In this document: positions 392 through 53,696 of the stretch, piece by piece | Layout: each line of letters opens with the position of its first letter | Position numbering within the stretch: the stretch's first letter is position 1 | Source: an uncultured Candidatus Saccharibacteria bacterium | Lineage (GTDB): Bacteria; Patescibacteriota; Minisyncoccia; Phycocordibacterales; UBA2100 | Direction of reading: 5' to 3' | Assembly (NCBI GenBank): GCA_964399345.1 | Contig: CAYNQE010000002.1 | Span: 1 to 62,467 of the forward strand | DNA length: 62,467 bases | The notes under the pieces: generated by a model | Told to the model about the DNA's origin: nothing | Databases searched by the model: none | The model's input: the letters and a program-made list of their open reading frames with translations, nothing else | Translations under genes and position numbers: made by a program

Positions 392-2191
392 TTAGGTTAC
401 CACACTATTAATTTCATCAGCAGAACCAGAACCTTCTGAGCTTGAGGTTATAATTTCCTCTGCCAACAACGCGCCACTTAGTTTATTAGCCTCAGCAAAC
501 GAAACCCTCCCCTTAAATGACTTTATAATTGCATCTTCCTTCATGGTAAGCATTCCATTTCTTCTTGTTATCTCGCTTATCTTGTCTTCAGCTGAATCTG
601 TTAATATTTGACGCTCTAACTCTCCATCCATTGATAATATTTCAAAAACTGCCAATCTTCCTCTTAAGCCGCTTGGGCATTCATCCGTAGGCTTTGATTC
701 AAAAAGAGTTTTTGGAATTTCTGGGCGATATTCCTCTGGTAAATCCGCAAATTGTTTCTCAAGCATCATTCGTGTACTTGCATCAATTTCCTTCTCGTCT
801 TCAGCCCCTTCACATGTCTTTCTAACAAGGCGTTGTGCAACAGCCAAAACAAGAGTTGGCGCAATTAGGTAAGGATCCACCCCCATATCAACAAGTCTTG
901 GAATAACGCCAATTGCTGAGTTTGTGTGAATAGTTGAAAGCACAAGGTGACCAGTTAGTGCGGCTTGGACCGCCAATTTAGCAGTTTCTCCATCTCGAAT
1001 TTCTCCAACCATAATTACATCTGGGTCCTGTCGTAGTGTTGTTCTAAGACCGCTAGCAAAAGTGTAGCCAATCTCAGGCCTTACTTGTGACTGGCTAACT
1101 CCCTCCATAAAGTATTCAACAGGGTCTTCAAGAGAGAGCACATTCTTTGTTTCTCTATCGAGCTCTGCAAGCATTGAATATAGAGTTGTTGATTTACCTG
1201 AACCTGTTGGTCCTGAAATTAGTATCAATCCATGAGGTTTTGCTACCGCTTCCCTTATCTTTCCAAGATGATCTTCTGAAAACCCAATTTCAGAGACTGG
1301 TATAAAACCTCTTTCCCTATCAAGGATTCGCATAACAATCTTTTCCCCATTAGTTGCAGGGAAAGTTGATACACGGAAGTCGATTTTATGCCCTCCTATC
1401 GTTGCTGAAAATCTACCGTCTTGAGGCTTCCTCCTCTCGTCTAGCCTCATTGAAGAAAGTACCTTTATTCTCGCCACAATTGCCTGATGAACTTTAGCAG
1501 GTAGAGTTAGAGAGGTGTGTAATATACCGTCAACTCTAAACCTAACCTTAATTAGCTTGTCCGTGCGCTCAATATGAACGTCTGAAGCCTGTCCGTCTAC
1601 AGCGTAGCGTAGTACGGTTGCAACGATTTTAATAACAGGGGCATCCTCTTTTATAAAAGCCTCCCCGCCACTTTCTTGTTCATTAATTTCTTCCTGAATG
1701 TTTTGCTCATCTTCTGTTAATTCGGTTTCAAGTTCAGTTAGCGCCTGTCCAACCTCACCTCCAAGAGAGTTATACATTTTAAGAACAGCCTGTAGATCAG
1801 CTTCTGAAATTAAAAATACCTTAAAAGGAAGCCCTTTCTTTCTGGTTATAAAATTAAGTGCATCTATTCCTCCAATATTTGAAGGATCAGTCATACCCAC
1901 CTCAAGAACACCGTCGGAAATCGCCAACGGTACCATAGAATAGTGTGTGGCTGACTCCTCAGGAATATTATCCAATATATTAAATGGAATTTGCTCTCCG
2001 CTTAAAACTCTGGTTGGTACTGAAGAACTTCCGGCCTTGGCTGTAAGAATACTTTCTTGAGACACTCCTACTTTTCTCAATACTTCCTCTACTGGTATAC
2101 CTTGAGTTTCTGAATTTTTAAGTACAGTCTCAGCGTCCTCTTTAGAGAGGACCCCTTTCTCAACGAGGCCTTGCATGAGGGAGTTCCCCAT
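392..2191 (-). CDS. pilB: Type IV pilus assembly ATPase (GspE/PilB family)
   Basis: 599 aa. Walker A GPTGSGKSTT, Walker B/Asp box DPDVIMVGEIRD, His box TGHLVLSTIHTN, N-terminal GspE_N-like repeats. Lies in a cluster with pilM/N/O-like genes. Confidence 0.92.
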   Translation of the reverse strand: MGNSLMQGLVEKGVLSKEDAETVLKNSETQGIPVEEVLRKVGVSQESILTAKAGSSSVPTRVLSGEQIPFNILDNIPEESATHYSMVPLAISDGVLEVGMTDPSNIGGIDALNFITRKKGLPFKVFLISEADLQAVLKMYNSLGGEVGQALTELETELTEDEQNIQEEINEQESGGEAFIKEDAPVIKIVATVLRYAVDGQASDVHIERTDKLIKVRFRVDGILHTSLTLPAKVHQAIVARIKVLSSMRLDERRKPQDGRFSATIGGHKIDFRVSTFPATNGEKIVMRILDRERGFIPVSEIGFSEDHLGKIREAVAKPHGLILISGPTGSGKSTTLYSMLAELDRETKNVLSLEDPVEYFMEGVSQSQVRPEIGYTFASGLRTTLRQDPDVIMVGEIRDGETAKLAVQAALTGHLVLSTIHTNSAIGVIPRLVDMGVDPYLIAPTLVLAVAQRLVRKTCEGAEDEKEIDASTRMMLEKQFADLPEEYRPEIPKTLFESKPTDECPSGLRGRLAVFEILSMDGELERQILTDSAEDKISEITRRNGMLTMKEDAIIKSFKGRVSFAEANKLSGALLAEEIITSSSEGSGSADEINSVVT

Positions 2192-2197
2192 AGCTAA

Positions 2198-2545
2198 TTA
2201 TTCTTGAAACGGATCGTTAGCCGATACGTCTCCTTCAAAATTTTCCCCTGATGGTAAGAACGGGTTGTCTCGTCCTACTGGCTCTGGAACAATTTGCTTT
2301 CCGAAATCTTGTAACTTACCAAATGCTGGGTTCTCAAAAATCGAACTATCCAATTGAATAGAGCGCATATCTAATAGCAGCCTAAGAATATCTTGATCCA
2401 CCACTACACTTCCTGAATTTCTAGAATTATTTGTGAGCAATTCCGAGCTTGTTTGGCTACCTGAAAGACCAAACCATCCCAGCCCCGCAATTACAACAAT
2501 AAGTATCACTAGAATTATTTTGTTTTCTTTTAGTGTATCTAACAT
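2198..2545 (-). CDS. Small single-pass membrane protein, PilP-like (RDNPF motif)
   Basis: 115 aa with an N-terminal TM helix (IILVILIVVIAGLGWFGL) and a GRDNPFLP motif resembling the R(D/N)PF motif of PilP-type pilus assembly proteins. Positioned between the PilO-like gene and pilB. Confidence 0.45.
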   Translation of the reverse strand: MLDTLKENKIILVILIVVIAGLGWFGLSGSQTSSELLTNNSRNSGSVVVDQDILRLLLDMRSIQLDSSIFENPAFGKLQDFGKQIVPEPVGRDNPFLPSGENFEGDVSANDPFQE

Positions 2546-2552
2546 ATAAATA

Positions 2553-3116
2553 TTACGGTAACCAGTAAGTCATTAAAGAAACATTGAATGTGTAGTTATC
2601 TTGAATTTCTGCAGAAAGAGGTTGTATGTTAAGAGATACTAAATCTACAACTCTTAAGCTTGACTCTAGGTCTTTAAGTAGAAGAACAAATTCATCGTAG
2701 GTTGATACAACTTCAAATTGTAATGTTAGAGACTTATACGGCAAATTTTGAGTATCTCCACCGTTTAATACGGACCCATCTTCTCCTTCTTTATTAGGTC
2801 CCTCAACTGAAACGCTCTGTATTCGTATTCCATACTTAGAAGCTATCCCGTCCATATCAAGAACTAATCTAACGTTGTCTACATGATCTGGAAGCATTTT
2901 TTGAAGCCTCTCAACATCTGTTTGAGTAAATAGGTTGTATCTTGAAAGCAGGCTACTCTTTAACTCTTGAATTTCACGAGTCTTGCTAAGTGCCTCATCA
3001 TATTGTGCTACCGTATCCTGGCTATTCTGAACATTATCGTAAGTTGGCCCTACGTAATACACAAAGGTTAGTACCGAAACTATTAAAAATATTACTGATA
3101 GTACTGTTTTTGTCAT
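2553..3116 (-). CDS. PilO-like pilus assembly protein
   Basis: 187 aa with an N-terminal TM helix followed by a coiled-coil segment and an alpha/beta C-terminal region. Gene order pilM-pilN-pilO is typical. Confidence 0.55.
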   Translation of the reverse strand: MTKTVLSVIFLIVSVLTFVYYVGPTYDNVQNSQDTVAQYDEALSKTREIQELKSSLLSRYNLFTQTDVERLQKMLPDHVDNVRLVLDMDGIASKYGIRIQSVSVEGPNKEGEDGSVLNGGDTQNLPYKSLTLQFEVVSTYDEFVLLLKDLESSLRVVDLVSLNIQPLSAEIQDNYTFNVSLMTYWLP

Positions 3117-3118
3117 AA

Positions 3119-3790
3119 TTACTGTTCTACCTCATTACTTCCACCAAACTCTCCAAAACTCTCTTCAGCGGGCTCCTCTACAGTCTCAGGAACATATTGC
3201 GAAACATTAGTATAATTTATTGCCGAAGGATTAATATTTGCAGTCACCACAAACGAAACCCCATCACTTATTAAGTCAATCTCAGAAAAGATTGGGTTTC
3301 CAATTGCGTTATGTTGTCCAAATACACTAGCCTGAAGTGCTACTCCATTAACACTTCGCGCTTTTCCTTTCATAATTACAACCATTTCGTTTGTAACTCC
3401 TCCAGATGTATATTCAAACGAGTCATACGAAACGGACTTTAAAGTAGTCTCCTGTAAAACTTTAAATATTTCAGACGGTGCAGTGTGATTTGTTAGTACA
3501 GAATTTGCTGCTATTAATCTAGCGTCTAGTCTAAGCAGCTGTTTAACAGAGTCTTCGTCCAATGCCTGACGCGCCCTATTTAATTGTTCTGCCTTTTTAT
3601 CTACATTTGCAGTTAGAAATCTATCGTAAAGAAATACTCCTGCAGCCAAAGCAAGAGAAGCGGCTAGAATAACCACTGTAATTAATATCAAAATATCACC
3701 CCCTCCCCCTGAAGATTTCTTAGGAGTACGTCCAGGCTGACGCGCTGGCATCTTCTCCGGTATGAACGATGATTTTATTTGTGATTCCAT
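3119..3790 (-). CDS. PilN-like pilus assembly protein
   Basis: 223 aa: short cytoplasmic N-terminus, one TM helix (ILILITVVILAASLALAAGVFLY), then a coiled coil. Immediately downstream of pilM. Confidence 0.55.
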   Translation of the reverse strand: MESQIKSSFIPEKMPARQPGRTPKKSSGGGGDILILITVVILAASLALAAGVFLYDRFLTANVDKKAEQLNRARQALDEDSVKQLLRLDARLIAANSVLTNHTAPSEIFKVLQETTLKSVSYDSFEYTSGGVTNEMVVIMKGKARSVNGVALQASVFGQHNAIGNPIFSEIDLISDGVSFVVTANINPSAINYTNVSQYVPETVEEPAEESFGEFGGSNEVEQ

Positions 3791-3807
3791 AAAAAATATT
3801 CAACGAA

Positions 3808-4941
3808 CTATTCCTGCATTTTTCTCAAAGCCATCCCAACCGCAACTGCAAATTCTGGACCTACTTCATTTAGCACTTCTTCAAGAAATGCTGGCGTTTG
3901 TATCTTTTCAAAAGGATTTCCTTTTTCTACTTCAACACTTACTATCTCGCTAATATACTTAGTAAGACCGTGTAATCCTGACCCTCCTCCTGTCAACACA
4001 ATACGAGAAACATTACGCCCATGCTTCTTCTCGTAACTTAATAGTACGCGATTAACATCTGAAAAAATACGCCCTAGTGTTGATAACAAGGCCTGTTTTA
4101 CCTGATTATCTTGTTCTGCGTCTGTACCTTCACGGACCATAAGACCCAAATCTTTCTTCATACGTTCAGCGTGTTCAAAATTCCACCCCAAAGCTCTTGA
4201 AACAGAAAGAGTCATTTCTTGAGAGCCCAAGTTTATAAGATGAGAAAATCGTATAACACCTCTTTCTACAATATATACTTTTGTTGTAGCTGCCCCAATA
4301 TCAACAATCATAATTGGCGCAATTCCGTGTGCTAAAGAAGACCTAACTGCACCAAAAATTTCTAACTCATAGAATCCAACATTTAATCCTGCGGTTTTAG
4401 ATATTGTTTGTAGATTAGTAAGAACTTCATTATGAATCGCAACAAGAAGAACTTCTGTCTTCTTAACATCATCTTTCTCCTCATCATCGCGAGACCATTC
4501 ACTGTTTGATTGATCTTTTGGAATAATAAACCAGTCTAATAGCACTTCGTTTATATTGGCTGGAATATATTTACGAGCCTCCAATGGAATCATTTGAGCA
4601 AGTTGCTCAGCTGGCATATCTGGCATCTCAATTACCGAAGTTAAACTTGAAAGAAATGGTACTGAAACCCCTGCATTTGTTGCAGTAACATTAGATTCAT
4701 TAACTAAATCCGTTAAAGCTTTTCCTCGCTCGGTTGGAGATAGATGTGTTGCTCTACCTACTTCTGTTCCTGAATACGGCCCCAGAGCAATTTCTCCATA
4801 AGTCTCAAGAACGGCCCTTCCCTTTTCCCGACGCAGCTGCACCACTTTAATTGAAGAAGTTCCTATATCCACCCCCAAAACACTGCTTCCACGGGGATTG
4901 CCTTTGCTTAATGAACCAAGAACTTTATCAAAAATGCCCAT
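3808..4941 (-). CDS. pilM: Type IV pilus assembly protein PilM (actin-like ATPase fold)
   Basis: 377 aa. N-terminal phosphate-1 motif GVDIGTSSIKVVQL, a second motif IMIVDIGAATTKVY, and a C-terminal LTGGGSGLHGL motif. Confidence 0.85.
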   Translation of the reverse strand: MGIFDKVLGSLSKGNPRGSSVLGVDIGTSSIKVVQLRREKGRAVLETYGEIALGPYSGTEVGRATHLSPTERGKALTDLVNESNVTATNAGVSVPFLSSLTSVIEMPDMPAEQLAQMIPLEARKYIPANINEVLLDWFIIPKDQSNSEWSRDDEEKDDVKKTEVLLVAIHNEVLTNLQTISKTAGLNVGFYELEIFGAVRSSLAHGIAPIMIVDIGAATTKVYIVERGVIRFSHLINLGSQEMTLSVSRALGWNFEHAERMKKDLGLMVREGTDAEQDNQVKQALLSTLGRIFSDVNRVLLSYEKKHGRNVSRIVLTGGGSGLHGLTKYISEIVSVEVEKGNPFEKIQTPAFLEEVLNEVGPEFAVAVGMALRKMQE

Positions 4942-44807: not shown

Positions 44808-45248
44808 TTACAGAACTCGTCCTTTTCGCATGCGGATCGTTATCTCGCAATTCAAAGAACTCATCCTAAAGCTGATTTTAGCGTTTTTTCTCAGAAGGCT
44901 GAGTGTTTTCTTTTTCGCCACAATTATTGCGGCTGGAAAACTCGCCTTTGATGCACCGTAAGTTGGGAATTTCGTCGTTCCCTTCCCAATGGTACATACA
45001 CCCCCCACTAAATACTGACCGTGAGGTGCTTTGACAAGAAAGGCACTGCAATGCCCCTTGTCTCGAACACCCTTGGAGGTGCTGGAGCATTTCGCGGCAG
45101 CCTTCCTCACTGCCACCTCCACACTGTCGGCAGTGGCTCCACCTTGCCCAGTAACACTGACCGCGATGACATCGATTTTGCCGGCACCTGCAAAAGATGG
45201 AGCAAGTAAGAGAAGGCTAAATAATGCCGTAAAAATTAACCGGGACAT
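44808..45248 (-). CDS. Secreted orphan protein (146 aa), G+C-richer than its neighbours
   Basis: Signal peptide MSRLIFTALFSLLLLAPSFAGAG and SD AAAGGA 6 nt upstream. My hand count of 44881-45180 gives 156/300 G+C, against 23/60 for a line of rplC. Confidence 0.55.
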   Translation of the reverse strand: MSRLIFTALFSLLLLAPSFAGAGKIDVIAVSVTGQGGATADSVEVAVRKAAAKCSSTSKGVRDKGHCSAFLVKAPHGQYLVGGVCTIGKGTTKFPTYGASKASFPAAIIVAKKKTLSLLRKNAKISFRMSSLNCEITIRMRKGRVL

Positions 45249-46948: not shown

Positions 46949-47083
46949 ATAAATATTATGGTTAGTTGTAATTATCAAGTGTAGAGTCGCGAGAACTGCT
47001 ACCCTATAGTTAATAATTACGTTATTAAATACACTGTGTACGCAATATAAAAAAGCGCACAACACGCGTGGGACCATGGTATC

Positions 47084-47113
47084 AAAAGAGCGCTTGTAGT
47101 CAAGCGCTCTTTT
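47084..47113 (-). terminator. Rho-independent terminator after the 347-aa secreted protein gene
   Basis: AAAAGAGCGCTTG-TAGT-CAAGCGCTCTTTT (palindromic, so it works on either strand). Confidence 0.75.
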
Positions 47114-47125
47114 GTGTTTTTGATG

Positions 47126-48169
47126 TTAGATCTCCTGCCAGGCCGGAGAAATATAGACTGTTTCCACGTCTCTTATATTTTCCCCTCTAGAATCAGTACA
47201 AGAGAGGGTAAATACTGTCTTTTCAGTTATCGGAGAGGTGTCTACTCTTCCCGAACGACCACTCCAAGAATCGCCGTTCGTACCAGTAACGCTACAGTTT
47301 GTTGATTCAACTGATGCCCATGTAATTGTAGTAGTCTGTCCGTCTCCAACTAAAGTAGGTTTTGCTTTCAGAGAAATGTCAGTGTCCCCAAGAGTAGGAG
47401 GTGAGACAATTGAACAACTTGGGTACTGCCCTGAGAAGCCTGAAGGACACGTCCCACAATCTGGATATGTTCCTGAAGTACCTGAAGGACATACACTTAC
47501 GTCACATATATTATTGCTAACCACCTCTGGATATCCTGAAACTGATATAACACACGTGTTGTTACAGTTTCTTGAACCAAACGCCGTTCTTGGAACACTC
47601 TCTCCACAAATAGTTTCTGTGAATGATTGAGAACAAGCGGTCCCTAAGTATGAAGGAAGTGCCGGGATTGTTGCAGTACAGGCGTACGATCCTGATCCTC
47701 CGGTACATTTATTACCGGTCCCTGAGAATCCACATGCATTTATTGCAGATGGGCAACTAGAAACCGTGCAAGAGCCTCCTGTAATTGGAGGATCGCCGGG
47801 ACCTGGACCATCTCCTCCAACTCCGACTTCAAACCCATTCCCTCCACCTGAATATACGGCACGGCCCTGGTTATCATAATCCACAAAATCACCAACTGGA
47901 TTTGCAACCTCTGTTGCATTATTTACCAAAGATTGAAATGCCTGATCTTCTGGAGACATATTATTACTACCTCCCCCTCCAAAAACATCACCTATTGCAT
48001 CACTTATTGCATCAAAAAAGTCTCCTATTGCTTCAACAAAGCCACCACCGCCTTCACCTCCTTCACCTCCTTCACCCTCGGCCGAAGTTATAAGTGGTGC
48101 AGAAAAAGCTACAAGTAAACTTATAAAAAAGACAAGTACCACTTTGTTAGAGAGTTGTAATGAGAACAT
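47126..48169 (-). CDS. Secreted Cys-rich protein, the Hint-less paralogue of 49737-51455
   Basis: 347 aa. Signal peptide MFSLQLSNKVVLVFFISLLVAFSAPLITSA, Gly/Glu linker, AIGD repeats, many Cys motifs, and a C-terminal module ending PAWQEI. Confidence 0.7.
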   Translation of the reverse strand: MFSLQLSNKVVLVFFISLLVAFSAPLITSAEGEGGEGGEGGGGFVEAIGDFFDAISDAIGDVFGGGGSNNMSPEDQAFQSLVNNATEVANPVGDFVDYDNQGRAVYSGGGNGFEVGVGGDGPGPGDPPITGGSCTVSSCPSAINACGFSGTGNKCTGGSGSYACTATIPALPSYLGTACSQSFTETICGESVPRTAFGSRNCNNTCVISVSGYPEVVSNNICDVSVCPSGTSGTYPDCGTCPSGFSGQYPSCSIVSPPTLGDTDISLKAKPTLVGDGQTTTITWASVESTNCSVTGTNGDSWSGRSGRVDTSPITEKTVFTLSCTDSRGENIRDVETVYISPAWQEI

Positions 48170-48256
48170 ATTAGTTTAATTAAAAGTATTTACTAAATAA
48201 TACACTACAAAATATCTCCGTATTCTATATATCCACATATTTGCTATTATTCGGCT

Positions 48257-49774
48257 ATGAAAAAACTCGCTATTCTTGCTGGATTATCTGCAGCCATATC
48301 CTTTAACGCCACATATCTATGGCCTTTAGGAGTACTTTCGTTTGCTCTATTTATATATTTACTTAAAAAGGACGAAGAAACCATTAAAATTAGCTGGATT
48401 TACGGCTTTATATTTATGGGAAGTAGCATTCTTTGGGGTTTTTCGGCTTTTCCTCTTTCAAGTATTGGTATTAGTGACCCAATAATAAGTGCTGTACTAC
48501 TTCTTTTTATATGGACATTGAGTTCACTCCTTCTAGCTTTACCAATAGCACTATTTGGTTATTTGTTCGTAAAATTTAAGCAAAATTCAAATATTGACCT
48601 TCTTTTTATCCCAGCATTGTGGGTATTACTAGAAATACTACGATCCTTACTTTTCTTTATCCTAACTCTAGCTCCACAATCTGTTATCGGACCGCACTGG
48701 ACCTTTGGCTACAGTGGCTACATTCTTGCAGGAAGTCCACTACTACTACAATTAGCATCCTTTGGAGGTGTGTATCTCTTAGGTTTTATCTTTGCGCTCG
48801 CTGGAACTGCTTTAGCTTACAATTATAAGAATAAATATGTTCTTTTTTCTTTTGTAATTCTCTCAATTCTATTCTACACTCCAATTAATGGAGAGATTGG
48901 TGGGGAGACACTAACTATTGCTGCATTAAAAACAACAGAATCTTCGTATTTCTCATCTGGAGGAATAGATAGAGAGTCTCGCTTACAAAGAATCGCTGAA
49001 TTAATTACCCTGGCATCCAAAGAAGATTCTTTGGACCTTATCGTAATCCCCGAAGATGCGCGGTTTATAAAACTACTCTCCGAAGAACAACTTAGTAAGG
49101 TACCAATAAGAAATGAATCTTTTCTTTTGGGATCTTCTAGGCTTGATACCCAAAATGAACCTGCTAAGTCACGAGTAATGACGTACTCCCACACAACCGG
49201 TAAGCAAGAACACTACACCAAGCTACTTCTTGTACCTGAGAGTGAATATCTATCCATTTTTTACCAACTCCTCTTTACCATTGTAGGACTAGGGGAAAGA
49301 GTGGATAATTTTAGTAACTTTAAAGAATACGGAAGAGGTAAAAAGGCAACTCCGACTTTACTGGGGGATATAAACGTAGCAGCCTCTCTGTGTTCTGAAA
49401 TATATTCTCCACTTATTCAAAGAGACCTATCTAAAGACTCTGGAATTATAATAAACTTAGCATCTCACTCTAGATTAAAAGGATCTAAGATTTTATTTAA
49501 TCAAATAATTGCAATGAGTAAAGTCAGGGCAGTTGAAAACAACAAATACGTGGTGCAGGCAACGAACTTTGCAAACTCCTTTGTCATATCAAATACTGGA
49601 GAAGTAGTTGAAATGACTTCATCAGATAATGACTTTAGTTACTCTCTTGCTGAAGTTCCAATAATTTACAAACAAACAATATTCTCTAAGTTACCGTACT
49701 TAGTTCCAGTACTCTCCATTCTTTTAATACTCCTTTTTAGAATTCTTGCCAGGCGGGAGCAACTTGAACTGTAG
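48257..49774 (+). CDS. lnt: Apolipoprotein N-acyltransferase
   Basis: 505 aa. Polytopic N-terminal half plus a CN-hydrolase domain with the triad context IVIPEDA (Glu), YTKLLLVPESEYL (Lys) and AASLCSEIYSP (Cys), then a final TM helix. TATTAT lies 6 nt upstream of the ATG. Confidence 0.8.
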   Translation: MKKLAILAGLSAAISFNATYLWPLGVLSFALFIYLLKKDEETIKISWIYGFIFMGSSILWGFSAFPLSSIGISDPIISAVLLLFIWTLSSLLLALPIALFGYLFVKFKQNSNIDLLFIPALWVLLEILRSLLFFILTLAPQSVIGPHWTFGYSGYILAGSPLLLQLASFGGVYLLGFIFALAGTALAYNYKNKYVLFSFVILSILFYTPINGEIGGETLTIAALKTTESSYFSSGGIDRESRLQRIAELITLASKEDSLDLIVIPEDARFIKLLSEEQLSKVPIRNESFLLGSSRLDTQNEPAKSRVMTYSHTTGKQEHYTKLLLVPESEYLSIFYQLLFTIVGLGERVDNFSNFKEYGRGKKATPTLLGDINVAASLCSEIYSPLIQRDLSKDSGIIINLASHSRLKGSKILFNQIIAMSKVRAVENNKYVVQATNFANSFVISNTGEVVEMTSSDNDFSYSLAEVPIIYKQTIFSKLPYLVPVLSILLILLFRILARREQLEL

Positions 49775-51455
49775 TGGTGTCAGTAAAGTCCCCTTCAACA
49801 CAATATAGTGTGTATGTAGTTTCTTCTGTTATCGCACCTGTTGTTTCATTACCACTTACTCCAGTCCAGTTATCTCCGTTTGTTCCTGACACTGAACAAT
49901 CAAGAGCAAGTTGAGTTGTCCATGTAATTGAAGTTGTACCTCCTGAGAGAACTAGTAGTGGTTGTGCTGCAACACTTCCTGTTGCAGGATCACACGTTGG
50001 AGCAGCCTCACTACAGGATCCATCACATTGTTGAGTTCCAACACTTCCAGATCCGCACCTATTAGATTCCTGACAAGAAGTCCCATATCCTGGAGGATTT
50101 GGTGGTGCTGTTGTACTACATGTGCCACCACACGTATACGTTCCTGGATTTTGAGAACCGCAGCTATTTTCTGGAACTGGATTACATGCTTGTCCGTAAT
50201 TTGAAGGAACAGAGGCACCAGAAGTACTACAAGAACCACTACATTGAATGGTCCCTGTGTCAGGCCCACACGCACTTGTTTCAGTACACGAATCTCCATA
50301 ATCAGAAGGAATTGTTGCTCCAGTTACGCTACACTGGCCATTACATTGAATTGTTCCTGTTCCTACACCACATGCATTTGTCTCGGTGCAAGAATCTCCT
50401 AAATTGGAAGGTGCGGAATTAGTAGCATTACATGAGTATGAACCGATTCCATTTACACATTCTTGACCTGTGCTTGACCCACAAGCGTTAGATATTGTGC
50501 AAGATTGTACTGTACATAATCCTCCGGGTCCATCAGGTCCTTCCCCTTCGTCCCCTTCGTTAACACCACCATAGTTATACCCAATTGAATCATCATAGTA
50601 ATAATCCACACCGTCTTGAGTGAAGGAGTAGCTCCCAACAGTATTTGTTAATTCGGTTGCAAACATTGCATGAAGTTCATTTCCACTAACAGTACTCCCT
50701 CCAGTATTTGTATCTCCTCCTAAGAAATCGCCAATCGTGTCAACAACATCTACAACAACATCCACGACGTCGTTTGCTACGTCTACTACAACATCTACAA
50801 CATCATTCGCTACATCCCCTATAGTATCTACAACCCCGTCAACTACGTCACCAATAGCGTCCACAACATCATTCACTACATCAACTACTGCATCTACAAT
50901 ACCTCCGCCATGATTTTTATTGTGCGCCAAAACACCGTCTGCAAAGAAGGCGTTGTATTTATCAACTGTCTTTAAGTTATAAGTTCGTAATTCTCCTTCA
51001 ACATATTCAATTGATTCAACTTCAACCCATCCATCTTCTGTGAATACCTCAGCTCCAATCTCTAATTGTGCAATTGGCCTTAGCTTTGTATCTTCGTAAG
51101 TAACTTCAGGAACGATAGATGCCCATCCCTTTTTGGTATAAAGAGGGTGTTCGTTTGTAACTCTAAGTAAGTCTCCATTAATTTCATAATACCCTTCTCT
51201 AATTGGGGATTCTAACTCTAAAACCTTTGCCTCAACAAAAGAATTTGTCTTAACATCATATGACCTTACAACATCTCCAACCTTAACTTCTTCGATGTTA
51301 ACAGAATCTCCATCTGGAAGAGAAATCTGAGTACCTGCTGGAAAACAAGAATCTCCACCACCTTCTCCACCGGCTGAAGAAACTACAGGAACTGCCAAAA
51401 GAGCAGCCGAAAACATTAGAAAAATCAGTTTTCTAGAAAGTTGTAAAGAAATCAT
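49737..51455 (-). CDS. Secreted protein: signal peptide, Hint (intein-like) domain, Val/Asp repeat, Cys-rich modules, conserved C-terminal module
   Basis: 572 aa.
- Signal peptide MISLQLSRKLIFLMFSAALLAVPVVSSA.
- Hint domain aa 37-179, from CFPAGTQISLPDG through VTNEHPL to FFADGVLAHN.
- VD-rich repeats aa 186-243.
- About 5 copies of a ...YG.SC.E.N.CG.G.GT.QC.G.CS... module.
- The protein ends in PAWQEF. Confidence 0.8.
   Translation of the reverse strand: MISLQLSRKLIFLMFSAALLAVPVVSSAGGEGGGDSCFPAGTQISLPDGDSVNIEEVKVGDVVRSYDVKTNSFVEAKVLELESPIREGYYEINGDLLRVTNEHPLYTKKGWASIVPEVTYEDTKLRPIAQLEIGAEVFTEDGWVEVESIEYVEGELRTYNLKTVDKYNAFFADGVLAHNKNHGGGIVDAVVDVVNDVVDAIGDVVDGVVDTIGDVANDVVDVVVDVANDVVDVVVDVVDTIGDFLGGDTNTGGSTVSGNELHAMFATELTNTVGSYSFTQDGVDYYYDDSIGYNYGGVNEGDEGEGPDGPGGLCTVQSCTISNACGSSTGQECVNGIGSYSCNATNSAPSNLGDSCTETNACGVGTGTIQCNGQCSVTGATIPSDYGDSCTETSACGPDTGTIQCSGSCSTSGASVPSNYGQACNPVPENSCGSQNPGTYTCGGTCSTTAPPNPPGYGTSCQESNRCGSGSVGTQQCDGSCSEAAPTCDPATGSVAAQPLLVLSGGTTSITWTTQLALDCSVSGTNGDNWTGVSGNETTGAITEETTYTLYCVEGDFTDTTTVQVAPAWQEF
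50727..50900 (-). repeat. Coding imperfect tandem repeat (Val/Asp-rich, roughly 12-15 nt sub-units)
   Basis: Encodes IVDAVVDVVNDVVDAIGDVVDGVVDTIGDVANDVVDVVVDVANDVVDVVVDVVDTIGDF. The DNA shows reiterated GTnGAY/ACATC-type units. Confidence 0.7.
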
Positions 51456-51531
51456 GAATAATTTATGTTAAATATAATGTACATTCATTGTACACCCTAC
51501 AAATTCAACTCTTTTCCGTTATGTGAACAAC

Positions 51532-51559
51532 AAAAAACCCGTCTTTCGACGGGTTTTTT
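51532..51559. terminator. Rho-independent terminator after fusA
   Basis: AAAAAACCCGTC-TTTC-GACGGGTTTTTT. Confidence 0.8.
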
Positions 51560-51560
51560 G

Positions 51561-53696
51561 TTAGTTTCTTGCGGCTTGTATGTCGTCTGCGATATTACGT
51601 GGAACCACCGCATAGTGAGAGAATTCCATAGTCGCATTTGCGCGCCCTTCTGTCATAGATCGTAGCGTAGTGGTATATCCAAACATCTCAGAAAGCGGAA
51701 CTTTAGCAGTAACTACCTTTGCATTACCTCGATCGTCCATTCCCTCAACTTGTCCACGCATTGAACTTAAGTTTCCGTTAACATCTCCCATAAACTGCTC
51801 AGGGGTTGTTACTTCTACCTTCATAACAGGCTCAAGAAGCACAGGTTGTGCACCTTTAGCTGCTTGCTGGAAAGCTTGAGATGCTGCAATCTTGAAAGCA
51901 ATTTCTGAGGAGTCAACATCGTGGAAAGAACCGTCGAATAGGTCAACTGAAATGTCTGCCATTGCGTATCCGGCAACAATTCCTCGCTCCATAGCCTCCT
52001 TAATACCCTTCTTAATTGCAGGAATGTATTCTGCTGGGATAATTCCACCCTTAATGTTGTTAATAAACTCAAAGTGATCTTCTCTATCAGTATTTTTTGC
52101 AATTTTTGCTCCCTCTTCAATTTCTTCAAGAGGTTTAATTCTAATTTTAACGTGTCCGTATTGTCCACGACCACCAGTTTGTTTGATGTATTTAACTTCA
52201 GCAGAATTTTCTCCTTGGATAGTCTCTCGGTAGGCAACTTGTGGCTTACCTAGCTCTGCTTCAACATTAAATTCTCTCTTCATACGGTCAACTAGAATTT
52301 CAAGGTGAAGTTCTCCCATTCCTGAGATAATAGTTTCAAGAGTTTCCGGGTCGGAAGAAACTTTAAAGGTAGGGTCTTCGTCTGAAAGTTTGTTTAGTGC
52401 AATACCCATCTTTTCTTGGTCTTGCTTAGTCTTAGGTTCAATTCGTGCGGCAACAACAGGCTCAGGGAATGTCATTTCCTCAAGAATTATAGGGTTCTCT
52501 TCGTCACAAAGTGTGTGACTAGTCTTTGTCTCCTTTAATCCTACGGCTGCTGCAATTTCTCCGGTGTAAACTTCTTCAACTTCCTCTCGCTTATCAGCTT
52601 GAAGACGAACAATACGTCCGATTCGTTCTTTTTTCTTTGTTGTTGCGTTATACACGTACGATCCAGCCTTAACAACTCCTGAATATACTCGGAAGAATGT
52701 AAGCTGTCCTACAAATGGGTCGGTTTGAAGTTTAAAGGCAAGGGATGCTAGAGGCTCATCATCTGATGGTGCTCTTTCAATCTCCTCTTCTGTCTTAGGA
52801 TCAATTCCTTTAACTGAAGGAAGGTCAAGCGGACTTGGAAGGAAGTCTACAACACCGTCTAGTACTAATTGAACTCCTTTGTTCTTTAGTGCTGAACCAC
52901 AGTAGACAAGAAATACATCGTTTGCGATAACCGCCTTACGTAGCAGTACCTTAAGTTCATCATATGATGGTTCGTTTCCTTCAAGATATGCATTCATAGC
53001 ATCCTCATCTTGTTCAACAATCTTTTCTACAAGCTCGTCGTGATATTTCTTGGCGTCTTCCTTAAGATTTTCTGGAATTTCTCCCTCGATTACATTCATT
53101 CCCATTTCACCATCAAATGTGTAGGCCTTCATCTTTAAAAGATCTACCGCTCCTTCATGATTTTCCTCCTCTCCAATTGGGATTTGGAAACGAATAGCTT
53201 TGTCAGACAGTCGCTCTACAATACTTGCGTATGATCGCTCAAATGACGCTCCTGTTCGGTCTAGCTTGTTTATAAAACAGATGCGCGCAACGTTTGCCTC
53301 TTCAGCGTAGCGCCAGTTTGTTTCTGATTGTGGTTCAACTCCGGCTACGGCGTCAAAAACTACAACAGCACCATCAAGCACTCTCATAGATCGCTTAACT
53401 TCGGCTGTGAAGTCGATGTGTCCTGGTGTATCAATAATGTTTAGAGGGTATTTGTCTTCCCCTTCTGAGTAAGTAGGTTGCCAATCACACGAAATAGCAG
53501 CGGCCGTAATTGTAATACCACGTTCTCTTTCTTGCTCCATCCAGTCAGTAACAGTCTCACCATCGTGAACTTCTCCAATCTTGTGACTCATTCCAGTATA
53601 AAAAAGAACACGTTCGCTGGTTGTTGTTTTACCAGCGTCGACGTGTGCTACGATTCCGAAATTTCGGAGTTTTTCTAGTGGATAGTTACGAGCCAT
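51561..53696 (-). CDS. fusA: Elongation factor G
   Basis: 711 aa. NFGIVAHVDAGKTTTSERVL, DTPGHIDF, NKLDR, and domains III-V present. Confidence 0.97.
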   Translation of the reverse strand: MARNYPLEKLRNFGIVAHVDAGKTTTSERVLFYTGMSHKIGEVHDGETVTDWMEQERERGITITAAAISCDWQPTYSEGEDKYPLNIIDTPGHIDFTAEVKRSMRVLDGAVVVFDAVAGVEPQSETNWRYAEEANVARICFINKLDRTGASFERSYASIVERLSDKAIRFQIPIGEEENHEGAVDLLKMKAYTFDGEMGMNVIEGEIPENLKEDAKKYHDELVEKIVEQDEDAMNAYLEGNEPSYDELKVLLRKAVIANDVFLVYCGSALKNKGVQLVLDGVVDFLPSPLDLPSVKGIDPKTEEEIERAPSDDEPLASLAFKLQTDPFVGQLTFFRVYSGVVKAGSYVYNATTKKKERIGRIVRLQADKREEVEEVYTGEIAAAVGLKETKTSHTLCDEENPIILEEMTFPEPVVAARIEPKTKQDQEKMGIALNKLSDEDPTFKVSSDPETLETIISGMGELHLEILVDRMKREFNVEAELGKPQVAYRETIQGENSAEVKYIKQTGGRGQYGHVKIRIKPLEEIEEGAKIAKNTDREDHFEFINNIKGGIIPAEYIPAIKKGIKEAMERGIVAGYAMADISVDLFDGSFHDVDSSEIAFKIAASQAFQQAAKGAQPVLLEPVMKVEVTTPEQFMGDVNGNLSSMRGQVEGMDDRGNAKVVTAKVPLSEMFGYTTTLRSMTEGRANATMEFSHYAVVPRNIADDIQAARN

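Follow-up and report, generated by a model that had tools for sequence, protein, structure and literature searches.

A predicted A-type bacterial intein-like domain behind the signal peptide of a cysteine-rich secreted protein from the candidate phyla radiation

Two genes for related cysteine-rich secreted proteins lie close together on a 62,467-nucleotide stretch of DNA from an uncultured Candidatus Saccharibacteria bacterium (contig CAYNQE010000002.1; "the window" below means this whole stretch), and the longer protein carries, just behind its predicted signal peptide, a segment of 143 residues that the shorter one lacks. What is this segment, what does it do to the protein that carries it, and how did it come to sit in one paralogue only? 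An earlier note, made from the letters of the DNA, had called it a Hint, or intein-like, domain and had delimited both open reading frames (ORFs), which we found exactly where it put them, with lengths of 572 and 347 aa.

The answer that we consider probable is that an A-type bacterial intein-like (BIL) domain sits in the post-signal glycine linker of a lineage-specific, Cys-rich secreted protein of the candidate phyla radiation (CPR), that it removes itself, and that one of two old paralogues acquired it and has kept it active. BIL domains of the A type have been known in variable secreted proteins since 2003 (they were reportedly described by Amitai et al. 2003 and Dassa et al. 2004), so the domain call on its own is ordinary. 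The case adds a well-supported intein-like domain, predicted to process itself, to the cell-surface proteome of a CPR bacterium. To our knowledge the cell-surface biology of these bacteria is almost unknown, and a full-text literature search found no paper joining a Hint domain with the candidate phyla radiation. The two genes are:

49737..51455, minus strand: gene of the BIL-carrying secreted protein, 572 aa (ORF; ortholog P0004 in a second genome)
47126..48169, minus strand: gene of the BIL-less paralogue, 347 aa (ORF; BLASTP to the long protein; ortholog on the second genome's contig, L004)

The hallmark residues can be read directly from the translation of the long gene. Cys37 lies in CFPAGTQISLPDG, the block-B-like motif is T100-N-E-H103, and the segment ends FFADGVLAH178-N179 and is followed by K180; all stand at the residues given by the earlier note, whose nucleotide range for aa 37–179 (50919–51347) is also correct. 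The segment is matched by seven Pfam families that belong to the Hint clan or are related to it, with E-values of 1e-5 to 1e-2 (AXH, Hint, PT-HINT, Vint, Hom_end_hint, Intein_splicing and Hint_2), the best being AXH at 1.1e-5, Hint at 5.2e-5 and PT-HINT at 1.3e-4. None of the Hint-clan models PF01079, PF07591, PF14623, PF14890, PF13403 and PF05203 reaches its gathering cut-off on the domain (23.4 bits vs 29.7 for Hint and 22.6 vs 27.7 for PT-HINT, with lower scores for the others), and since all the matches are below cut-off, Pfam alone is only suggestive. A further match of the BIL profile is to the AXH domain of ataxin-1/HBP1, at 1.1e-5 in Pfam and at 1.5e-10 over about 105 residues in the profile search of PDB sequences; we read it as a probable cross-hit to the N-terminal half of the Hint fold.

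Against PDB sequences, phmmer aligned the segment end to end with BIL2 of Tetrahymena BUBL1 (3e-5) and with the Clostridium thermocellum BIL 2lwy (5e-5), and the alignment to a PDB BIL domain covers the C-terminal FFANGVLAH(N>A). With a 24-sequence profile the same two reached 1.3e-25 and 6.4e-21, the best intein 4.4e-12 and hedgehog 1.7e-4. AlphaFold2 (AF2) run on the single sequence (aa 1–200) gave an unusable model, with a predicted local distance difference test score (pLDDT) of 36; rerun with the 24-sequence alignment, it modelled the domain at a pLDDT of 90 and a predicted template modelling (TM) score of 0.85. Foldseek ranked BIL2 first in the PDB for this model (E 8.5e-11, TM 0.78–0.86, root-mean-square deviation 2.1–2.3 Å) and 2lwy second (E 1e-8, TM 0.73/0.85), followed by mini-inteins (E 2e-7 to 1e-6, TM about 0.65–0.8) and then hedgehog 1at0 (9e-5). 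We regard the domain as a member of the Hint clan that no single Pfam model captures. The call of a Hint or intein-like domain therefore stands, on the profile match to BIL2 and on the confidently modelled Hint fold; a lack of any profile match and a lack of a Hint fold, which the earlier note had named as telling against its call, are not what the PDB matches and the AF2 and Foldseek results gave. The comparison with Hint and intein profiles that it had proposed came out in two halves, strong for the BIL sequences in the PDB and below the gathering cut-offs for the Pfam Hint families.

A-type BIL domains have Cys1 and a C-terminal His-Asn and no +1 nucleophile (PMC4031507, PMC7765530), and BILs sit in hypervariable regions of non-conserved bacterial proteins (PMC7765530). 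The window domain has the Hint fold, Cys1, TxxH and His-Asn, with no Cys, Ser or Thr at +1; its sequence is nearer to BILs than to inteins or to the Hint domain of hedgehog proteins (Hog), and it sits in a variable part of a secreted protein that is not conserved. As every defining feature that a sequence can reveal is present, we assign aa 37–179 to the A-type BIL domains and predict that it cleaves itself. A six-frame hidden Markov model (HMM) scan found no second BIL copy in the window. The likeness to 2lwy and to A-type BILs in general extends to the length of about 140 aa without an endonuclease, and to this kind of site in a variable, secreted host protein; the differences are the CPR host, the position of the domain 8 residues past the predicted signal-peptidase site, and a clade with a strongly conserved +1 Lys then Gly. 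BIL2 of BUBL1 from Tetrahymena thermophila (6tmm, 6y75) is the best match in both sequence and structure and shares the C-terminus FFA(N/D)GVLAHN, but it is eukaryotic, cytoplasmic and flanked by ubiquitin-like domains whose C-terminus it activates, whereas here a signal peptide and a Gly linker form the N-flank, in an exported protein.

The 572-aa host protein is laid out as follows:

51372..51455, minus strand: predicted Sec signal peptide, aa 1–28 (MISLQLSRK, then LIFLMFSAALLAVPVV, then SSA before G29), read from the sequence and aligning with the paralogue's N-terminus
51348..51371, minus strand: Gly-rich N-flank GGEGGGDS, aa 29–36, read from the sequence
50919..51347, minus strand: predicted A-type BIL (Hint-fold) domain, aa 37–179, 143 aa, no endonuclease insert (profiles, AF2, Foldseek)
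51147..51158, minus strand: block-B motif T100-N-E-H103 (conserved in the family)
50916..50918, minus strand: Lys180, at +1 after the terminal His-Asn (Lys at +1 in 186/277 related domains)
50520..50915, minus strand: Gly linker and acidic, Val/Asp-rich 'AIGD' repeat region, aa 181–312 (sequence; paralogue alignment)
49995..50519, minus strand: Cys-rich body of ~30-aa modules (C..N.CG..GT.QC.G.CS...P.N..YG..C), aa 313–487 (sequence; BLASTP)
49740..49994, minus strand: C-terminal module, aa 488–572, ending ...APAWQEF (common to the paralogue)

With this layout, the domain most likely excises itself after export. The protein would be exported and its signal peptide cut after SSA28, GGEGGGDS would become an 8-residue N-extein, and the domain would then fold. 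An N-to-S acyl shift by Cys37 at the Ser36-Cys37 bond would give a thioester, and Asn179, aided by His178, would cyclise to a succinimide and so cut the Asn179-Lys180 bond. The domain would leave, and the main product would be a mature protein beginning with Lys180 (KNHGGG-IVDAVVD...), possibly with a minor 'spliced' form in which GGEGGGDS is re-joined to the amine of Lys180. In A-type BILs cleavage products dominate, and splicing is a low-yield reaction in which the thioester is attacked by the amine that Asn cyclisation sets free (PMC4031507; also PMC7664689, PMC7765530). The Lys at +1 excludes class-1 splicing, and to that extent the earlier statement that canonical splicing looks impossible holds; it does not extend to splicing altogether, given this low-yield route of A-type BILs (PMC4031507).

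The comparison of the two paralogues defines where the domain sits. BLASTP (E 2e-23) aligns aa 1–28 of the long protein with aa 1–30 of the short one and aa 186–571 with aa 44–346, and neither BLASTP nor the pairwise alignment found any sequence homologous to aa 37–179 in the 347-aa protein; the paralogue thus lacks exactly the Hint segment, as had been claimed, with both flanks aligned. With a slash for the predicted signal-peptidase cut, the junction reads ...VVSSA/GGEGGGDS-BIL-KNHGGG-IVDAVVD... in the long protein and ...LITSA/EGEGGEGGEGGGG-FVEAIGD... in the short one. The site in the long protein was called by eye with the -3/-1 rule: small residues at -3 and -1 follow a 16-aa hydrophobic core and, before that, a basic n-region. 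The BIL and a K-x-H-G-G stub are embedded in the Gly-rich linker, 8 residues past the cut.

A second genome helps to date the insertion. The only close ortholog of the 572-aa protein is P0004, a hypothetical protein of a Candidatus Kaiserbacteria metagenome-assembled genome, with 56% identity over 99% of the length. Its contig, NVTG01000081 (L004), carries in order the BIL protein, lnt on the opposite strand, a 361-aa BIL-less paralogue, tuf and rpsJ. This 361-aa protein (3187–4272) is the ortholog of the window's 347-aa paralogue, with 75% identity and no BIL, and in both of them the Gly linker runs straight into the AIGD region. Because both paralogues and both states are conserved in L004, the insertion is old and fixed; the two genes are not alleles, nor the occupied and empty versions of one host protein that had been proposed, but old paralogues with about 30–44% identity. 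No direct repeats or target-site duplication beside the BIL-coding segment were seen when the DNA was read by eye. A scan with the host body over 185,579 species genomes found no further orthologs of the host protein; it found 17 loci that match in the C-terminal module only, and none of these CPR loci has a BIL within 6 kb. Since these 17 distant loci have the module and not the BIL, gain of the domain by one paralogue is the tentative reading, favoured by parsimony over its precise loss.

In a codon-level comparison of the window genes with L004, the BIL is the best-conserved and most constrained part of its host protein. Its 143 residues are 88.8% identical, with a synonymous divergence (dS) of 0.71 and a ratio of nonsynonymous to synonymous divergence (dN/dS) of 0.086, against 34% and 0.35 for the repeat region (aa 180–312, the least conserved part), 58% and 0.35 for the Cys-rich body, 82% and 0.19 for the C-terminal module and a dN/dS of 0.29 for the whole gene. 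The BIL is about equal in dN/dS to lnt (0.087) and tuf (0.089). With 96.5% identity between the EF-Tu proteins of the two genomes, and with P0004 as the nearest relative of the BIL protein, the window comes from a CPR bacterium of the Kaiserbacteria group. The sizeable dS of the BIL argues against a recent transfer between the two genomes, and its low dN/dS indicates that the domain is kept intact.

Several points weigh against the reading of an acquired domain that removes itself and is kept active. Every single-family match, in Pfam as in NCBIfam, is under its curated cut-off. Activity is argued from conserved residues and purifying selection, and the signal-peptidase site is an eye reading. 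Low dN/dS is no proof that the host benefits, since a self-excising element would be constrained anyway, because failed excision would damage the host protein. Once the signal peptide is cut, the N-terminal reaction would serve a mere 8-residue peptide, which makes its conservation hard to explain, and simple cleavage would leave the conserved +1 Lys unexplained. The host may gain timed maturation or a defined Lys N-terminus, or it may tolerate a self-removing passenger.

How general the lysine is can be seen in the wider family. A word-indexed homology search with the Hint segment alone gave two relatives, and profile and exhaustive searches gave the rest: the exhaustive one, with an HMM against 1.84 billion representative proteins, matched 17,142 clusters at E <= 1e-3, 4,405 at <= 1e-10 and 496 at <= 1e-30. 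The profile relatives inspected are the best 150 of the 4,405, and the family statistics refer to 277 complete domains delimited in 159 retrieved proteins. The catalytic positions are near-constant (residue 1 Cys in 99%, block-B Thr in 97% and His in 100%, penultimate His in 91%, terminal Asn in 95%), and the +1 residue is Lys in 67% (186/277), Arg in 5% and Cys, Ser or Thr in about 7%. Gly takes +2 in 40%, and -1 is Ser in 38%, Cys in 19% and Gly in 15%; positions -2 to -4 are mostly Gly, and Gly-rich flanks are typical.

The domain occurs at the N-terminus, at the C-terminus, in the middle and in tandem arrays. A single BIL is found in 83 of the 159 proteins and 2–7 complete copies in the other 76, and counting stretches with HMMER gives up to 8 BILs in P0034 and 9 in P0099. 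A place directly behind a signal peptide and short Gly linker recurs in many unrelated relatives, with an N-flank of at most 60 aa in 24 proteins, and the domain lies at the extreme C-terminus, with a C-flank of at most 20 aa, in 37. Tandem BILs usually have spacers of just 1–6 residues (K, KG, KGG, KC); if all the units in the arrays of P0034, P0005, P0017, P0006 and P0007 cleave themselves, free BILs and tiny peptides would result. Named members come from Kaiserbacteria, Nanoarchaeota and Mucilaginibacter, and the window domain appears to belong to a large prokaryotic BIL clade of CPR bacteria, DPANN archaea and Bacteroidota. Its arrangement is one recurrent form of a widespread, mobile-looking cassette of Gly linker, BIL, Lys and Gly linker. 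Four small proteins (P0001, at 8001–8777 of L001, P0083, P0090 and P0150) begin with a membrane anchor or lipoprotein-like signal; a Pro/Thr stalk, poly-Gly and one BIL follow, and apart from Gly-rich tails of 6–21 residues whose first residue is Lys there is nothing else. Such BIL-only proteins suggest that a BIL can have a cell-surface function of its own.

The lysine is the point at which an alternative deserves most attention. Its share is alike whatever the context of the domain (106/156 internal, 52/75 tandem and 27/40 terminal domains), and five relatives end exactly ...HN-K while others end KQ, KL, KW or KGM. Cutting off one terminal Lys makes little sense as a release, so the +1 Lys looks like part of the chemistry of the domain, and its conservation hints at lysine-directed chemistry. 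In an isopeptide form of splicing, the epsilon-amine of the +1 Lys, rather than water or the alpha-amine, would attack the Ser36-Cys37 thioester and, after Asn cyclisation, an isopeptide bond would link the N-flank to the side chain of Lys180; that Lys would take the role of the intein +1 Cys, Ser or Thr is, like the reaction as a whole, a doubtful proposal, though one to be kept in mind. It accords with the frequency of the +1 Lys and its independence of context, with the proteins that end at or just past this Lys, and with the closest solved relative: BUBL BIL2 reportedly activates the C-terminus of its N-flank and links it, through an isopeptide bond, to the epsilon-amine of a lysine (PMC8616854). 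Against it, the chemistry is postulated from sequence, one third of the relatives do not have a +1 Lys, the gene calls behind some 'terminal' proteins may be truncated, and here only an 8-residue peptide would be transferred. The Lys may instead tune Asn cyclisation, or belong to the mobile cassette (K, then Gly linker).

Extended to the clade of 496 clusters (E <= 1e-30), the same idea would have the +1 Lys epsilon-amine capture the thioester and so give isopeptide-linked or 'lysine-capped' extracellular products without ATP, which we likewise judge improbable at this scale. If true, it would generalise chemistry reported for a single eukaryotic domain, BUBL BIL2, and would explain the ...HN-K ends, the tandem spacers K, KG and KC and the BIL-only surface proteins. 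In the BIL review literature, a scope outside which the primary BIL papers lie, we found no description of a conserved +1 Lys then Gly. Its conservation across hundreds of clusters makes lysine-directed ligation by prokaryotic BILs a testable hypothesis, and such a ligation, if true, could serve as a protein-engineering tool. The effect of a BIL on its host also has a natural control here, in a paralogue pair with and without the domain that is conserved in two genomes.

The earlier note had suggested that self-processing could release the body of the protein from its signal-anchor. The signal peptide would then stay uncleaved as a membrane anchor, and C-terminal cleavage by the BIL would free an adhesin-like body. 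The domain does lie between the hydrophobic N-terminus and the body, A-type BILs mainly cleave at their C-terminus, by Asn cyclisation (PMC4031507, PMC7765530), and some small relatives (P0001, P0083, P0090) are made of membrane anchor, stalk and BIL only. The signal, however, has a normal small-x-small site, SSA/G, and the BIL-less paralogue has an equivalent and equally cleavable-looking one, TSA/E, and so needs no such release. P0008 combines a signal-plus-BIL N-terminus with a hydrophobic C-terminal tail, which we read as a putative membrane anchor; given this arrangement, and with BILs at all positions in the relatives, release is not the general role of the domain. We therefore consider an anchor release unlikely for the window protein and do not retain it as the explanation.

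It is quite improbable that the domain is a Hint fold that has no catalytic activity and is retained for a structural or binding role at the mature N-terminus. Small proteins with nothing but a BIL and tandem arrays with 1–6-residue spacers would suit such a module, as would a domain that is more conserved than its host protein, but all catalytic residues are intact here and near-invariant in the family, which is unexpected for a purely structural role.

That the domain is a PT-HINT domain releasing the C-terminal toxin of a polymorphic toxin system is highly improbable. PT-HINT (PF07591) is likewise a Hint autoprocessing domain of secreted bacterial proteins, and its profile matches the segment weakly, below threshold. 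However, PT-HINT precedes a toxin domain and an immunity gene, and neither is present here: the domain is N-terminal, the downstream 393 aa have no toxin-domain match in Pfam or NCBIfam scans and are common to the BIL-less paralogue, and the next gene is a convergent lnt, not one of immunity type. PT-HINT was rejected on these defining features.

A canonical class 1 mini-intein splicing its host is barely credible, since such inteins (gp41-1, Npu/Ssp DnaB) share the fold, catalytic blocks A, B and G and the Cys1, TxxH and His-Asn residues but have a +1 Cys, Ser or Thr and sit at conserved sites of essential cytoplasmic proteins, often with a homing endonuclease, whereas this 143-aa domain without endonuclease insert has a +1 Lys, lies in a flexible linker of a non-conserved, secreted host and is nearer to BILs in both sequence and structure. 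Hog was rejected as well: hedgehog (1at0) has the Hint fold and the Cys1 thioester step, but its Hog domain is C-terminal, comes with a sterol-recognition region, has no terminal His-Asn and transfers a large N-terminal domain to sterol, whereas the domain here is N-terminal, with a tiny N-flank, a conserved His-Asn and no extra region within it.

The surroundings of the two paralogues are as follows:

51561-53696, minus strand: fusA
51529..51562, no strand: 15-bp palindromic terminator-like hairpin between fusA and the BIL gene
48257..49774, plus strand: lnt-like gene (apolipoprotein N-acyltransferase family), 505 aa, between both paralogues (LNT_N, CN_hydrolase)
47083..47114, no strand: 14-bp palindromic terminator-like hairpin between the paralogue and tuf
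45752-c.46950, minus strand: tuf

Further neighbours are rpsJ, rplC and rplD, all on the minus strand. The BIL protein gene, lnt and the paralogue form an insert of three genes that separates fusA (EF-G) from tuf (EF-Tu) in the bacterial str/S10 cluster, which is otherwise conserved around them and has an equal gene order in L004. The two hairpins, long perfect palindromes with A/T runs on either side, bracket this insert and look like bidirectional terminators. Elsewhere in the S10 operon, between rpsJ and rplC, a 146-aa ORF (44808-45248, minus strand) has a signal-peptide-like N-terminus, MSRLIFTALFSLLLLAPSFAGAG; it had no match in a Pfam scan.

The two paralogues indeed flank lnt, as the earlier note had said. 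The lnt-like ORF converges on the BIL gene, with a 38-nt overlap of their ends, and matches LNT_N at 2.6e-15 and CN_hydrolase at 5.3e-9 in Pfam and TIGR00546 at 110.5 bits, under the cut-off of 132.9. It aligns full-length with P. aeruginosa Lnt (5n6m), and in this alignment, read by eye, the motifs PED/PET, YTK/YLK and LCSEI/ICYEV line up. We take these to be the Glu/Lys/Cys catalytic triad. In L004, too, an lnt-like gene (1568-3097) lies between the two paralogues, and in a 644-kb Paceibacterota genome another lnt homolog (L017, 925-2568) is found ~2 kb from a protein with the same C-terminal module. A functional link between lnt and the paralogue pair is possible, though their proximity may be due to chance. 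Neither window paralogue has a lipobox. A lipoprotein reading, with Cys37 as the lipobox Cys next to lnt, was considered and rejected: Cys37 stands in a G-D-S-C context ~12 residues past the hydrophobic core, and at this position the paralogue lacks a Cys. The two L004 proteins have F-C-C-G-A-T-S after the Gly linker (at about aa 185 of P0004 and aa 44 of its paralogue), which is absent from the window pair.

The rest of the host protein is built of modules that recur elsewhere. The Cys-rich module is also found in the paralogue (47405-47780) and in the CPR proteins P0013, P0018, P0020, P0029 and P0033, and 2–10 repeats of the ~30-aa unit (C..x.N.CG..xxGT.QC.G.CS...P.NP..YG..C) occur in many metagenome-derived secreted proteins, a few of which bear the Pfam MopE-type metal-binding motif PF11617. 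The ~85-aa C-terminal module (...ITW...C.V.GTNGD.W.G..G...T.PITE.T.[FY]TL.C...) is present at 49740-49994 and 47129-47404 of the window and at the 17 CPR loci of the genome scan (L005-L021), in Saccharibacteria, Paceibacterota, Kaiserbacteria and further CPR genomes. We know of no description of this module. At these loci it invariably forms the very C-terminus, with the ending P-x-[F/W/Y]-x-E-x-COOH in every case (PAWQEF, PIFQEF, PFWRER and PKFEEI are examples). It resembles a conserved C-terminal signal for sorting or attachment, but one that has no membrane segment.

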